Notes: generated by a model from the sequence alone, not told the origin. DNA of 14,067 nt from Candidatus Sigynarchaeum calidifontis (GCA_030587475.2 JAUQYZ020000110.1:1-14067), one strand, 5' to 3'; shown: positions 834 to 5,369, counted from the stretch's first letter. Translations and numbers: made by a program.

Positions 834-1087
834 GTTAACACACCATCACACCATTTGATTGCAGTGATGATAAGTCTAGTATGTATCTCGAAATGCATGG
901 GTCTAAAAAAATTTGATCGATTAGGACTTCTATATATACAACTGCAACATATGGCTTGCCCAAGACACGTCGAGGCTTTCTACAGAAAAGTGTTATATTG
1001 CACATCAAGGATTGAAAAAACCGATCGAAACATACAAAGATAGCTTGCGTTTATCCTCAAAAATTGCCCCCGATTCACTTGCGGGAT

Positions 1088-1103
1088 GAATAAAGTTAAA
1101 AAG
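1088..1103 (+). promoter_or_regulatory. Putative BRE/TATA promoter for the trp leader-trpB2 transcript
   Basis: Purine-rich GAATAAAG followed by TTAAAAAG (1096-1103). The expected TSS (~1120-1130) lies upstream of the leader ORF. No comparable TATA was seen between 1300 and the trpB2 start. Confidence 0.5.
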
Positions 1104-1169
1104 TCCCGTCGGAATCAACATAATAACGCAATACTCGGATGGATTCTGATGACGTGCCGAAGGATTCTG

Positions 1170-1205
1170 ATGAGGACCATTGCATGGGCTTGGCGGGTCC
1201 ACTAG
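1170..1205 (+). CDS. trpL: Putative tryptophan attenuator leader peptide MRTIAWAWRVH (longer in-frame starts at 1149 and 1086)
   Basis: ATG AGG ACC ATT GCA TGG GCT TGG CGG GTC CAC TAG, with two Trp codons (1185-1187, 1191-1193). AAGGA SD-like sequence at 1160-1164. It ends 158 nt upstream of trpB2 and overlaps attenuator-like hairpins. Confidence 0.7.
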   Translation: MRTIAWAWRVH

Positions 1206-1306
1206 ACACGCACGAGCTACCGCACAGTTCCCCGAGCTAGCGTCCCTCGTTTCTTGAACCGTCCGCGTGCGTTTTGATGCGCGCGACGGGAACGTTTTTC
1301 TTGTTT
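1187..1306 (+). promoter_or_regulatory. Putative Trp transcription attenuator (1:2, 2:3 antiterminator, 3:4 terminator)
   Basis: 1:2 is GGCTTG-GCG-g-GTC (1187-1199) with GAC-a-CGC-a-CGAGCT (1205-1218). 2:3 is ACGCACG (1208-1214), the perfect complement of CGTGCGT (1266-1272). 3:4 is 1259-1272 with 1277-1289, followed by the U-rich tract at 1295-1306. Confidence 0.65.
1248..1306 (+). terminator. GC-rich hairpin plus U-tract (attenuator terminator) upstream of trpB2
   Basis: CCGTC-c-GCGTGCGT (1259-1272), loop TTTG, then ATGCGCGC-GACGG (1277-1289): 13 bp including 2 G-U pairs. A lower stem pairs CGTTT (1248-1252) with GAACG (1290-1294), immediately followed by TTTTTCTTGTTT. Confidence 0.65.
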
Positions 1307-1363
1307 GATGCAATATTCGAGAAGAAATCGTAGTATTCCAGAACATGATAGAAGGTAAGAACC

Positions 1364-2752
1364 ATGGATGTAACAAACCCTATCATCCGGCTCCCGCCGG
1401 AAAAGCTTCCGAAGAACTACCTGAACTTGGCGGTTCACCTGGGCTATAACTTGCCGTTGATCAGCCCGGTGACCATGAAACCCGCGACGCCAGAGGAGGC
1501 GCTCATGATGTTCCCGCAAGGCGTCGTGGCGCAGGAGATGAATTTCGCCGATCGCGAGATTCCCATCGACGACGAGCTACGCGCTGCCTATTACTACGCG
1601 CAGCGCCCCACGCCGCTCCACCGCGCATTTCGACTGGAGAAGGCTCTCGGTCTCTACGACGGCGTTCACATTTACTACAAGAACGAGTCCGTCTCGCCGA
1701 CCGGCAGCCACAAGACGAACACGGCCATTGCCCAGGCCTACTACGCGAAAAAACAAGGCATCAAGGCCTTCGCGACCGAGACCGGTGCCGGTCAATGGGG
1801 CTCCGCGCTGTCCTACGCGTGTGCCCTCTTCGGACTCGAATGCCGGGTCTACATGGTACGCGCCTCTTACCGCCAGAAACCCTACCGTGGCATCCTCATG
1901 CGCACGTACGGCGCCACGGTCGCCGAATCGCCGTCCAACTTGACGGACGTCGGCAAGAAATTCTACGAGAAGGATCCCAACCATCCTGGCTCGCTCGGCA
2001 TCGCGATCTCAGAGGCCATCGAGGACGTGATCAAGCACAACGACACGACTCGCTACTCGCTCGGTTCGGTCATCAACTCAGTCCTCCTCCACCAGTCCAT
2101 CGTCGGCCAGGAGGCAAAGATGCAGATGGAAATGGCCAAGGAATACCCCGACGTCGTGATCGGCTGCCACGGCGGCGGTTCCAATTTCTTCGGCTCCGCG
2201 TCCGCATTTCTCGCGGATAAGATCGATGGAAAGGCGGATCCAACGATCATTGCGGCCGAAGCAGCGGCTGCTCCCAAGCTCACGAAGGGAGTCTACAAGT
2301 TCGATTACGGCGACACCGGCCACGTTGCGCCCATTGCCAAGATGTACACGGTTGGCTCTGACTTCATCCCGGCGCCCGTCCACGCGGGAGGTTTGCGGTA
2401 CCACGGCGCTGCTATGCTCGTCTCACTCGCTCTCAGCAAGAAACTCATCAGCGCGGTTGCATTGCAGCAGCTCGAGGTCATCAAGGCCGGGATCACCTTT
2501 GCAAAAAGCGAGGGCTTCGTCCCCGCGCCCGAGACCTGCCACGCCATCTGCGAGGCCATCAACCAGGCCAAGGCCGCAAGTGACAAGAAACAGAAAAAGG
2601 TCATCTTCTTCAACTGCAGCGGCCACGGGTACTTCGACATGGCAGCGTATGGCGACTTCATGGACGGGAAGCTCATCAACTACGAGTTACCCGACGAGAA
2701 GATCAAGGATTCTCTCTCCCGGCTTCCCAAGGTCGAAGGTCCTTGGGTGTAA
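1364..2752 (+). CDS. trpB2: Tryptophan synthase beta chain 2 (TrpB2, PLP-dependent), stand-alone
   Basis: 462 aa. YYKNESVSPTGSHKTN (PLP lysine), TETGAGQWG, GSLGIAISEA, GCHGGGSN, HAGGLRYHG, PAPET and NCSGHG are TrpB2-type motifs. No trpA is adjacent. Confidence 0.95.
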   Translation: MDVTNPIIRLPPEKLPKNYLNLAVHLGYNLPLISPVTMKPATPEEALMMFPQGVVAQEMNFADREIPIDDELRAAYYYAQRPTPLHRAFRLEKALGLYDGVHIYYKNESVSPTGSHKTNTAIAQAYYAKKQGIKAFATETGAGQWGSALSYACALFGLECRVYMVRASYRQKPYRGILMRTYGATVAESPSNLTDVGKKFYEKDPNHPGSLGIAISEAIEDVIKHNDTTRYSLGSVINSVLLHQSIVGQEAKMQMEMAKEYPDVVIGCHGGGSNFFGSASAFLADKIDGKADPTIIAAEAAAAPKLTKGVYKFDYGDTGHVAPIAKMYTVGSDFIPAPVHAGGLRYHGAAMLVSLALSKKLISAVALQQLEVIKAGITFAKSEGFVPAPETCHAICEAINQAKAASDKKQKKVIFFNCSGHGYFDMAAYGDFMDGKLINYELPDEKIKDSLSRLPKVEGPWV

Positions 2753-2828: not shown

Positions 2829-3521
2829 TCATTCTTTCCGGCGGTGCGTGCACGTTTCCTTGAGCTCGCAGTGTTCGCACGGAGATCCGGATTCCTGGCC
2901 GAGAGGGCGCGGCCCGGCGCCCATGATAAAGGATACCGACTTGATCGGCACCATGAGCATAGACGGCTCGAGTCGGACGCCGATCACCGCGACCTCGTCC
3001 TTGAGTAAATCGAAGATGGCTTGTTGGCCGGCGATGGGCCACGCCGACTCGCCTGGGCCAAGCGGGATGCTCGCGTGCCAGCCACGGGCCTTGTAATGGT
3101 CAAATTGCAGCCGCAAGGCGAGCTGTTCCCGGATGGCGCCAGCCGCCCACGATGCCAGCAGATCGAGCACGATGCCGTGGAACGTTTCACCTGCGCTCAT
3201 GTATTCCTTGGCCTTGTGTTCCATGCCCGGGCCGATCGTGCACACGCCAGCAACCAGTTCCGTGGCGCCGCAGATGACCTTCACCACGGGACCCCCGCCG
3301 ATCCGCACACCGTTCGCAAGGACGACCTTGTCGTGTTCGATGCCCGTGATGGGGAACACTGCCCACGCCGCAGCCGGCTTGGCGAGCTCGGCGAGTTCTT
3401 TCTTCGCTGTCTCGATGATCGCCATGTTGCGCTGTGACTTGAGAACGCGCTCCGCTCCCTTGCCGAGCCGCTGCCGGATCATGGCGTCATCGACGGCCAG
3501 GTCGAAGTCGGTCGTGATCAC
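2829..3521 (-). CDS. Vitamin B12-dependent methionine synthase activation domain-like protein (stand-alone)
   Basis: C-terminal part of track ORF 2829..3914. Its N-terminal part overlaps leuA and is spurious. Motifs GVCTIG, LGPGESAWPIAGQQAIFDLL, IGVRLEPSMLMVPIKSVSFIMG and C-terminal CEHCELKETC. Start is probably GTG 3521 (alternative ATG 3482). Confidence 0.8.
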   Translation of the reverse strand: MITTDFDLAVDDAMIRQRLGKGAERVLKSQRNMAIIETAKKELAELAKPAAAWAVFPITGIEHDKVVLANGVRIGGGPVVKVICGATELVAGVCTIGPGMEHKAKEYMSAGETFHGIVLDLLASWAAGAIREQLALRLQFDHYKARGWHASIPLGPGESAWPIAGQQAIFDLLKDEVAVIGVRLEPSMLMVPIKSVSFIMGAGPRPLGQESGSPCEHCELKETCTHRRKE

Positions 3522-3540
3522 GATGGGATCATTGATGGCG

Positions 3541-3560
3541 GGAGGGAAAAAAAGGAGAAG
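3541..3560 (-). terminator. U-tract terminator after leuA
   Basis: The minus strand reads CTTCTCCTTTTTTTCCCTCC about 30 nt after the leuA stop. Confidence 0.45.
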
Positions 3561-3586
3561 TGCCGGAAGACTTGACTTTTCACAGG

Positions 3587-5254
3587 CTAGAAGGTCGGGC
3601 GCGCAGCGGTCGTGTCCTTGCCGTCGGGGGTGCCTTTCTTGCGCATCTTCATGAGCTTGTTGAGCGCGTTCATGACGGCTTGCACGCTCGACATGACGAT
3701 GTCCTCGTGGGCAGCGTGACCAGCGACTATGATGCCGTTCTCGTCCTTGATCTTGATGGACGTGACGCCGAGCGCATCGGTACCACCAGTGACCGCCTCG
3801 ATCTCGTATTCCAGGAGCTCGACTTTGCCGATTTCCTTGAAGGTCTTGAGGATGGATTTGACAGCGGCGTCGACCGGGCCGACCCCGATCGACGAATCGA
3901 TGCGCTGCTCCCATCCGCCGTTGATCCGAACGCGGATCTTGGCAGTAGCCGTGGGCGTGACCGAGCCCGTGAGGACCGTGAGCTCATCGAGGATGACTGT
4001 CTTGTCTTGCTGGGCCATCTTGCCCGTGACATCGTTCGCGATCGTGAGCAAGTCGATATCCAGGATCTTTTTCTTTTTATCCCCGAGTGATTTCAATTTT
4101 TCCATTATCTCGGTAAATTGCTCGTCCGTGTACGTGACGCCGAGCTCGTCGAGCTTGGCCTTGAGCGCGTGGCCGCCCGTGTGCTTGCCGACCGTGATCG
4201 ACTGGGCGACGATGTCGGACAAATCATCGGTACGCGGGTAACCGATGAGCTCGGGCGTGAGCGGCTCGTACGTGCGCGGGTTCTGGATGACCGCGTGCGC
4301 GTGGATGCCGGACTCGTGGCGGAAAGCGTTCTTGCCGATCAAGGGAAACTGCACGGGGATCTTGATGGACGAGAAGCGCTCGATCATCTTGGAGGTCTTG
4401 TAGAGTTCCTTGTAGTTAATGCTAGTCTTGACACCATAGAGGGCATAGAGGGCCGTCGCGACTTGTTCAAAGGATGCGTTCCCCGCTCGCTCGCCGATGC
4501 CAAGGAACGTCGTGTGGATGACCTCGGCACCGTTCTCGACGCCGGCTAGCGAGTTCGCGACCGCAAGGCCGAAGTCGTTGTGACAATGGGCACATATCTT
4601 CACGCTTGCCGGGATCTGCTCGCGATTCTTGGCAACCACGTAGCCGAAAGCCTTGGGCGTCGTTGTGCCGACCGTGTCAGGAATGTTGATCCGGGTCGCG
4701 CCAGCTTTCACGGCGGCAAGGTTAGCTTGGATCAAGAAATCCAGGTCGGTACGGGTCGCGTCCTCCGCGGAAAACTCGACAGTATTGAAGTGCGACTTGG
4801 CATAACTAACCATTTCCGTGATCCTGGTCAACACTTGCTCGCGAGTCATCTTGAGCTTGTCGCGCAAGTGTAGATCGGACGTCGCGATGAACACGTGGAT
4901 CGCATTCATGTCCGCCGCGATCACCTCGTCGATGTCCTTTTTAGCAAGCCGAGCGAGGCCGATGACCTGGGCCTTCAAGCCGAGGTGGCTGATCTGCTTG
5001 CATGACTCGAAATCACCCTTTGAGACCACGGGCATGCCGGCTTCGATGATATCGATACCCAACGCGTCGAATTGCTGGGCGATTTTCAACTTCTCGTCCA
5101 AGGTGAACGAGACTTCCGGAGTCTGCTCGCCATCGCGGAGACTCGTGTCGAAAAAGTAGACGTGTTCAGGGAGTTTGGAAGAAACGAGGTTTATATGTGG
5201 ACTGACATAGATGTCCTTCTTGTCGGACTCTTTACGAGCCGAGAAAATCATCAC
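3587..5254 (-). CDS. leuA: 2-isopropylmalate synthase / citramalate synthase family (DRE-TIM) with C-terminal LeuA regulatory domain
   Basis: DTSLRDGEQTP, EFSAEDATR, IPDTVG, HCHNDFGLA, GIGERAGNA, HESGIH and GKHTG, plus regulatory domain GVGPVDAA...GGTDALG...DIVMSS. LeuA versus CimA cannot be settled by eye. Start is GTG 5254 or ATG 5251. Confidence 0.88.
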   Translation of the reverse strand: MMIFSARKESDKKDIYVSPHINLVSSKLPEHVYFFDTSLRDGEQTPEVSFTLDEKLKIAQQFDALGIDIIEAGMPVVSKGDFESCKQISHLGLKAQVIGLARLAKKDIDEVIAADMNAIHVFIATSDLHLRDKLKMTREQVLTRITEMVSYAKSHFNTVEFSAEDATRTDLDFLIQANLAAVKAGATRINIPDTVGTTTPKAFGYVVAKNREQIPASVKICAHCHNDFGLAVANSLAGVENGAEVIHTTFLGIGERAGNASFEQVATALYALYGVKTSINYKELYKTSKMIERFSSIKIPVQFPLIGKNAFRHESGIHAHAVIQNPRTYEPLTPELIGYPRTDDLSDIVAQSITVGKHTGGHALKAKLDELGVTYTDEQFTEIMEKLKSLGDKKKKILDIDLLTIANDVTGKMAQQDKTVILDELTVLTGSVTPTATAKIRVRINGGWEQRIDSSIGVGPVDAAVKSILKTFKEIGKVELLEYEIEAVTGGTDALGVTSIKIKDENGIIVAGHAAHEDIVMSSVQAVMNALNKLMKMRKKGTPDGKDTTAARPTF

Positions 5255-5369
5255 TACCCATCACGGTTCACGCTCACGACCCCAAAAAGCCGGGTCACGA
5301 CGAAAGAAGGCAAGATGACATTTAAACGATCACGTAAAACCGACGAAATAACGATGGATCCCAGCCCGC

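Follow-up and report, generated by a model that had tools for sequence, protein, structure and literature searches.

The trpB2 locus and its leader

The stretch of DNA analysed here, hereafter called the window, is a 14,067-nucleotide (nt) sequence of Candidatus Sigynarchaeum calidifontis (GCA_030587475.2, JAUQYZ020000110.1:1-14067), which carries the gene trpB2 and, upstream of it, a short open reading frame (ORF) with two Trp codons. It corresponds to contig C203 of a genome of 4.99 Mb (269 contigs, 54% GC, 89% complete). A preliminary description of this DNA had placed the host among the Asgard archaea and had presented the region in front of trpB2 as a complete, bacterial-style, ribosome-mediated tryptophan attenuator. 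The placement is borne out, the host being a member of the Promethearchaeota (the NCBI name of the Asgard phylum).

The trpB2 gene (1364-2752, plus strand) encodes a stand-alone TrpB-like pyridoxal phosphate enzyme of 462 amino acids, and its matches to the profiles NF009057 (603 bits), TIGR01415 (564 bits) and PF00291 agree with its earlier identification as TrpB2. The gap 5' of the gene measures 320 nt. Within this gap, 7 nt 5' of the start codon, a Shine-Dalgarno (SD)-like GAAGGT (1351-1356, plus strand) can be read in the sequence, which probably serves as the ribosome-binding site; GAAGGTAAGAACCATGG at this site is the same in the same-genus relative L006 and almost the same in L126, a very close relative obtained from a metagenome scan.

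The leader ORF, MRTIAWAWRVH, runs from an ATG at 1170 to a TAG at 1203-1205, with Trp codons at 1185-1187 and 1191-1193, its coordinates and peptide being as previously given. One codon separates the two Trp codons and four codons, including the stop, follow the second. A longer form of 18 amino acids, MTCRRILMRTIAWAWRVH, begins at an in-frame ATG at 1149, the whole feature thus occupying 1149-1205 (plus strand). Since L006 shares the opening ATGACGTGC with the long form and lacks a second start, the leader may in fact begin at 1149. The two starts lie in a 12-nt direct repeat, GGATTCTGATGA (1141-1152 and 1162-1173, plus strand), each copy of which gives an SD-like GGA and an in-frame ATG (1149 and 1170), so that the repeat doubles the ribosome-binding region and the start codon of the leader in frame. 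Both copies are present in L126, and L006 has the first start only. A reading of the CTGATGA repeats as a C/D-box small RNA was rejected, as a D box at the proper distance is absent and Rfam gave no match.

Upstream of the leader, a TATA-like promoter box (ATAAAGTTAAAAAG) with a conserved flank, GTCCCG, occupies 1090-1108 (plus strand), and this block is near-identical in L126 and L006. Boxes of the TATA type (TTTATATA, TTTAAATT and TTTTTATT) are located at the equivalent position 5' of every leader in the family. Transcription would start near 1120-1128.

Conservation of the leader in related genomes

The trpB2 loci of 40 relatives from the same order, to which 12 more were added later, were used for comparison. 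In 29 of the 41 loci of the order the sense strand carries, 5' of trpB2, a W(x)W mini-ORF that starts with ATG and has its Trp codons near the stop, while the antisense control gave none (0/41). The Trp-codon upstream ORF that the preliminary description had proposed to seek in front of Asgard trpB2 orthologues is thus conserved. In the family of the window the leader peptides read MTCENRTIAWSWRR, MPSNLWTISWAWH and M..GTRTFPWAWRP, L126 has MRTIPWVWRAH, and the leader endings among the relatives include ..RTIAWSWRR, ..WTISWAWH and ..RTFPWAWRP, in each case directly before the stop codon. The leaders of the A+T-rich family follow the patterns M[AV]T[DE]KN.FW[RC]WQWPWR[FS] or ..SWQWPW[RHQ]WQ, also ending at a stop, and contain three or four Trp. 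L126 was the only true relative among 80 loci returned by a scan of metagenomes with a degenerate pattern, which otherwise yielded mainly chance matches.

The surroundings of the leader are conserved as well. The distance from the leader stop to the trpB2 start is 156-164 nt in the A+T-rich clade and 158 nt in the window, TATA boxes are found about 50 nt 5' of the relatives' leader starts, and SD-like TGATTT or TGGTTT lies 9-12 nt before the start. Gaps within the ORF in the leader alignment measure 3 or 6 nt. At the nucleotide level, TTGGCAGTGGCC around the Trp codons is invariant in 13 aligned leaders of the A+T-rich clade (alignment A2), with TTGGCAGTGGCCTTGGCG found in most of them, and GGACCATTGCATGG occurs in three leaders of the G+C-rich family out of four compared, namely those of the window, of L006 and of a second copy located before the genome's own trp operon (see below).

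A comparison of the window with L126, its closest relative, revealed that substitutions are unevenly distributed, which speaks for selective constraint on the leader part. The segment 1120-1247, comprising the 5' untranslated region (UTR), the leader, the hairpin around its stop codon (helix 1:2) and the next 30 nt, differs at 7 of 128 positions (5%). The following segment, 1248-1306, with a C/U tract, a second hairpin (3:4, here also H3) and a T-rich tract, differs at 20 of 59 (34%), and the rest of the spacer up to the trpB2 start (1307-1363) at 9 of 57.

Most near-complete genomes of the A+T-rich family (f4; G006-G040) have no trpD match, yet they keep both the leader and trpB2. This suggests that these organisms make Trp from scavenged indole only, and the retention of the leader makes sense for a salvage enzyme governed by the supply of Trp. 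Genera possessing a trp operon are often without a leader 5' of trpB2.

Two further arrangements were observed in front of trpB2. In three genera (L006, L002 and L003) an extra 100-150 nt with a conserved CGCGTGCACGTGA-N8-CACGTGA, consisting of E-box-like repeats, is placed between the leader and the gene. This block, located about 60-120 nt 5' of trpB2 and absent from the window and L126, may represent either an operator or an additional promoter. In the Asgard family f9, 4 of the 12 genomes sampled (L198, L203, L204 and L206) have, about 160 nt 5' of trpB2, a leader of another type, M..YQWHWGPRGPV, which ends at a stop. Its 'GPRGP' codons form a GGGUCC-N4-GGACCC hairpin, and TGTACA-N4-TGTACA-like pairs resembling the TRP boxes of TrpY are situated just 5' of its TATA box.

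A second leader, in front of the trp operon

In this genome the main trp operon is spread over two contigs, C208 and C17, in the order trpD-trpC-trpF-trpB, continuing trpB-trpA-trpE. A paralogous Trp leader, MVLPRTIAWSWRG, which likewise ends at a stop codon, precedes trpD on C208 (about 3107-3366, minus strand; locus L051). It has a TATA-like box before it and, after it, a stop-spanning hairpin (CCUGGCGC/GCGCCGGG) and two C/U-rich tracts. Judging by the same-genus genome, the trpD start on C208 probably lies 90 nt 3' of the start of the longest ORF. Trp-rich leaders are also found 5' of trpD in another six genomes from this order, so that the link between a Trp-codon leader and Trp genes, first noted at a single locus, holds 5' of trpB2 across the order and 5' of the trp operon, including the genome's own paralogue.

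Behind the trp-operon leader of G002 (L053; ..LTWPWHWPLPA, then a stop) there is a clear SD-sequestering hairpin, CCCTCCTT/AAGGAGGG, together with a duplicate AGGAGGG upstream. From its sequence this arrangement looks like translational attenuation and not like termination.

The second copy bears on the simplest alternative, that a chance ORF and chance hairpins have come together in a long intergenic region. Short ORFs with WxW are indeed common: among 57,995 short ATG ORFs in the six frames of the genome 378 contain it, 26 of them intergenic and 5' of a gene, and the fold of the whole leader region has a z-score of only -1.47. The weight of the leader finding therefore rests on conservation, since a WxW ORF alone is not rare in a genome of 54% GC. 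However, the leader is conserved across three families, the antisense control is empty, and the motif T[IFLV][APS]W.W[RHQ] has exactly two matches in the six-frame translation of the 5-Mb genome, which are the leader of the window and that of the trp operon. The trp-operon copy, the antisense control and the specificity of the motif effectively refute an origin by chance, which we consider scarcely credible.

Helix 1:2 and the conserved stretch after the leader

Helix 1:2 (1187-1199/1205-1218, plus strand) was found at the place previously described. It has 12 base pairs (bp) and an energy of -15.6 kcal/mol, and is more stable than shuffled sequences (z -3.68; none of 200 shuffles as stable). 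Its 5' arm is formed by the second Trp codon and the following codons, the first Trp codon contributing G1187 only, and the stop codon of the leader is located in the loop and in the first closing pair. Stop-spanning hairpins of other sequence recur in the relatives, and compensatory changes distinguish those of L019, L021 and L026. When compared with shuffled flanks, the stop-spanning hairpin reached p<0.05 in 8 of 34 leaders, where 1.7 would be expected.

The nucleotide conservation at the Trp codons raises another explanation, in which the mini-ORF or its UGGC repeats serve some other purpose, either as a Trp-rich peptide with a function of its own or as a TRAP-like protein-binding site in the RNA. 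Third codon positions near the Trp codons are unusually conserved (in TTGGCAGTGGCC and GGACCATTGCATGG), suggesting a constraint at the level of RNA. On the other hand, the ATG, the SD-like motif, the frame and the near stop are kept while the peptides drift, and helix 1:2 accounts for much of the nucleotide conservation. Furthermore, no homologue of TRAP (MtrB, PF02081) was found in the 89%-complete genome with a search in which the Bacillus subtilis control was positive, and no (G/U)AG repeat array is visible in 1120-1363. Such another purpose seems very improbable.

The best-conserved stretch 3' of the leader is 1208-1247 (plus strand), with two substitutions relative to L126. Its ACGC..AGCU (1208-1218) can pair with AGCU.GCGU (1233-1243), a pairing which excludes helix 1:2 and does not overlap hairpin 3:4. 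Both arms are the same in the window, L126 and L006, and the loop varies; as the pairing is no more stable than in shuffles, the structure is a candidate only. It is followed by a C/U-rich tract, CCCTCGTTTCTTGA (1244-1257, plus strand), which has four substitutions in L126. Similar C/U tracts (CTCTTTCTTG, CTCGTTCTTGAA, CCTCCTTCTTGA and CCTCTTTCT) occur 3' of the paralogous trp-operon leader and of the leaders of other genera.

Hairpin 3:4 and the U-rich tract

Hairpin 3:4 (1259-1289, plus strand) consists of 13 bp with one bulge, is G+C-rich and closes with a UUUG loop. At -19.4 to -21 kcal/mol it is likewise more stable than shuffles (z -3.43). In L126 the changes 1271G>U and 1278U>A are compensatory, 1280C>U and 1286A>G retain wobble pairs, and 1279G>C alone disrupts a pair; the version in L126 still folds, with z -2.16. 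The base of the stem, CCGTC/GACGG in the window, is CCGGC/GCCGG in L006, which is again compensatory; L006 also has a large insertion inside the hairpin. Thus the hairpin that the preliminary description had drawn here is present and its pairing is kept in both relatives. As the pairing is protected even though the hairpin lies in the fast-evolving part of the region, the pattern of substitutions indicates that H3 is functional.

The tract proposed as the U-tract of an intrinsic terminator, TTTTTCTTGTTT (1295-1306, plus strand), is a T-rich candidate for an archaeal termination signal. It is present where it had been placed, but it does not abut the stem, being separated from it by 5 nt (GAACG), is not conserved in L126, whose only T5 lies within the loop of H3, and was not called by a consensus terminator scan, which gave no site.

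A broader signal emerges from the relatives. Within 110 nt 3' of the leader stop, runs of five or more T occur in 26 of 34 leaders, and runs of five or more A in 3 of 34. The mean base content 3' of the leader stops is 0.40 for T versus 0.27 for A, and in one subgroup the first T run is located at a fixed position, +31. This excess of T runs on the sense strand supports the presence of termination signals of some kind.

Search for an antiterminator

According to the preliminary description, a ribosome stalled on the Trp codons would free 1208-1214 (ACGCACG) to pair with 1266-1272 (CGTGCGT), and this pairing, 2:3, would block the intrinsic terminator made of 3:4 (1259-1289) and the U-tract (1295-1306). 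Every segment of this four-segment model lies at its stated place, helices 1:2 and 3:4 are significantly stable, and the ribosome footprint is positioned with respect to segment 2 in the way described. The antiterminator itself is the part of the scheme that did not stand. At -12.0 kcal/mol it is just as stable as 1000 shuffled sequences are on average (-12.0, standard deviation 2.3, p 0.48); a change in L126 disrupts one of its pairs and is not compensated, and in L006 4-5 bp are left. Its probability was 0.00 in all ribosome-masked folds, even when segment 1 was masked and the transcript ended ahead of segment 4.

A thermodynamic switch was consequently rejected: in masked folds of full and truncated transcripts, pairing 2:3 was never gained and 3:4 never lost. 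With the ribosome placed at the first Trp codon, at the second, at the stop or nowhere, no exchange between 2:3 and 3:4 took place, an outcome that the preliminary description had itself named as evidence against its model. It also counts against this model that the U-tract lies 5 nt off the stem and gives way to GCATATAATGATTGATAG in L126, that the terminator scan was blank, and that archaeal RNA polymerase is not known to require a hairpin for termination. The designation as a complete attenuator of bacterial style cannot be kept, as 2:3 fails the shuffle, conservation and folding tests and the U-tract is neither abutting nor conserved.

Kinetic trapping could still operate despite equilibrium folds that do not switch. 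In the trp operon of Escherichia coli the terminator is likewise more stable than the antiterminator, and for this reason kinetic control could rescue the four-segment model. Taking these points together, we regard the model as unlikely.

Other pairings were considered. The predicted 5' UTR (1120-1146) can pair with 1256-1276, which includes the 5' arm of H3, at -19.2 kcal/mol (p 0.011 against shuffles). L126 has this pairing in weaker form and L006 lacks it; it may be an antiterminator particular to one lineage or may be coincidental. Several candidates were discarded. A long-range pairing of ATTGCAT (1179-1185) with ATGCAAT (1308-1314), seen in the minimum free energy fold, is affected in L126 by an uncompensated 1182G>C, and a pairing of the C/U tract (1248-1255) with AAGAAATCG (1322-1330) is broken by the L126 changes. 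An RNAalifold consensus on 13 A+T-rich leaders contained weak helices only.

A proposed ribosome-read Trp sensor

In all likelihood, a Trp-specific cis element is the only reasonable reading of the leader, because order-wide conservation, the 0/41 antisense result, the trp-operon copy and the two-match motif all point the same way. The leader very probably lets the ribosome gauge the supply of Trp. With moderate confidence, we further propose that 1090-1363 acts in cis as a ribosome-read Trp sensor for trpB2, most likely by way of premature termination. What the analysis establishes is a conserved ORF tied to Trp genes and the two hairpins; translation of the leader, stalling as the signal and the whole output step are the parts of this proposal that we infer.

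The sensor would function as follows. A promoter near 1090-1103 would give rise to a leader transcript, whose short ORF would present two Trp codons near its stop, the second of them, with the codons that follow, forming the 5' arm of the stop-spanning hairpin 1:2. When charged tRNA-Trp is scarce, the ribosome would stall on the Trp codons and occupy this arm; when Trp is plentiful, it would get to the stop and depart. The two states would be read out in the spacer of about 160 nt, most likely as more or less premature termination at H3 (1259-1289) and the U-rich tracts around it, with the result that trpB2 would be made chiefly under Trp shortage. Archaeal RNA polymerase terminates at oligo-U without the need for a hairpin; a further, factor-dependent route of termination, acting on untranslated RNA, is provided by FttA. 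Conditional premature termination of this archaeal kind is preferred as the output owing to these properties together with the excess of T runs.

More specifically, the element might be a ribosome-mediated attenuator native to Asgard archaea, with a bacterial-like sensor (an ORF with cognate codons and a stop-spanning hairpin) and an archaeal output. The latter would be hairpin-independent U-tract termination, FttA-dependent termination or stall-dependent protection of the transcript, in place of the 2:3/3:4 switch. Such a coupling would represent a solution of its own in the prokaryotic lineage closest to eukaryotes. We put this forward tentatively, judging its chances to be somewhat below even.

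Several observations weigh against a sensor that acts through premature termination. The related genomes are non-independent samples, so the leader counts overstate the statistics. The probability of H3 stays at 0.93 with a ribosome at the Trp codons, with one at the stop and with none, meaning that the equilibrium folds do not switch, and no conserved antiterminator was identified when the window was compared with its relatives. Positions 1291-1306 differ at 11 of 16 in L126, which reads GCATATAATGATTGATAG there, and several G+C-rich relatives are without a T5 near their hairpin. Sequestration of the trpB2 SD was rejected as an output, for the unpaired probability of the SD and AUG was unchanged over the masked states in 22 leaders (means 0.54-0.57). 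Finally, in the A+T-rich clade a near-palindrome, TTGAATTCCAA, is strongly conserved and a TATA-like stretch lies about 50 nt 5' of trpB2. These may constitute a second, factor-controlled promoter, and read-through from the leader would therefore be less important in that clade; no box comparable to TTGAATTCCAA was seen in the window.

The same sensor may have another output without regulated termination. A stalled ribosome near the 5' end could shield the transcript from 5'-to-3' decay, in the manner of the erm mRNAs of Bacillus that ribosome stalling stabilises, or could alter the translation or processing of the trpB2 mRNA. Protection by stalling would have the right sign, with TrpB2 raised when Trp is scarce, and would need no antiterminator, which matches the failure to find one; in addition, spacer architectures vary greatly among the genera, and the SD-sequestering hairpin after the G002 trp-operon leader (CCCTCCTT/AAGGAGGG) offers a parallel for control of translation. 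However, the masked folds revealed no systematic shift in the accessibility of the trpB2 SD, the sense-strand excess of T5+ runs suggests termination signals, and the conservation of H3 would be left unexplained. Our analysis leads us to regard this output as improbable.

If the proposal of a ribosome-read Trp sensor is true, the logic of attenuation reaches an archaeal transcription machinery which resembles the eukaryotic one. The locus would then be a concrete, readily mutated test case for the dialogue of the ribosome with archaeal RNA polymerase and FttA. Expression of a stand-alone TrpB2 upon Trp shortage would also bear on the debated role of TrpB2 in indole salvage.

Neighbouring genes and other candidate leaders

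None of the neighbours of trpB2 on the contig is involved in Trp synthesis; they comprise leuA, an Arf-like small GTPase, proC and subunits of a 2-hydroxyacyl-CoA dehydratase. No Leu-codon leader was found 5' of leuA (window 5255-5369, minus strand), where a TATA-like TTTAAATG is followed by about 40 nt without an ATG. On the same strand, the longest ORF of the gene 3' of leuA (2829-3914; leuA 3587-5254) weakly matches the Met_synt_B12 activation domain. It overlaps the 3' end of leuA by 328 nt, and for this reason the real start of the gene probably lies further downstream.

Leaders for other amino acids were sought in the genome with a crude scan for single-residue-rich mini-ORFs. The candidates obtained (HHH, TTTT and FF.FF) were rejected: five of the six downstream genes checked are not involved in amino acid synthesis (GTPase, molybdopterin oxidoreductase, ABC ATPase, ceramidase-like protein and DNA methylase), and for the other one no Pfam match was obtained.

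Comparison with known systems

Trp-dependent control of archaeal trp genes is known from the TrpY/TRP-box system of Methanothermobacter, which shares this feature with the element proposed here; TrpY is, however, a DNA-binding repressor acting at TGTACA boxes. There is no TGTACA TRP box at the leader promoter, the only TGTACA of the window being at 2343, inside trpB2. No published archaeal leader-peptide attenuator was found in the full-text literature searched, and one tool paper says in passing that upstream ORFs regulate archaeal genes, giving no example.

The erm-type leaders of Bacillus, which affect mRNA stability and translation, resemble the present case in that a ribosome stalled on a short leader ORF changes downstream expression. 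They differ in the signal, which would here be a shortage of charged tRNA and not a drug, and no SD-sequestering helix is evident in the window.

Leader-peptide attenuation is a textbook mechanism of bacteria and needs coupled transcription and translation. The closest counterpart of the leader is trpL of enterobacteria, from which it differs in several respects: its host is archaeal, its Trp codons are arranged as W-x-W and not in tandem, no antiterminator is supported, and the U-tract is neither abutting nor conserved. Termination in archaea, moreover, depends on U-tracts and FttA and not on hairpin-driven release. A search of the whole window with cmscan (E<=1) gave no match to the Rfam family RF00513 (Trp_leader), the only hit being a weak snoRNA-like match elsewhere. 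The sensor half of the bacterial attenuator is supported and the switch half is not as it had been drawn, so that the element is not a complete attenuator of that kind. What it shares with trpL and with the his, leu, thr and phe attenuators is a short ORF directly 5' of the cognate biosynthetic genes, with cognate codons clustered near its stop. Other points in common are that the regulatory codons pair in a hairpin with sequence 3' of the stop, that a stable G+C-rich hairpin and a U-rich tract are located downstream, and that the last Trp codon is followed by one for Arg.

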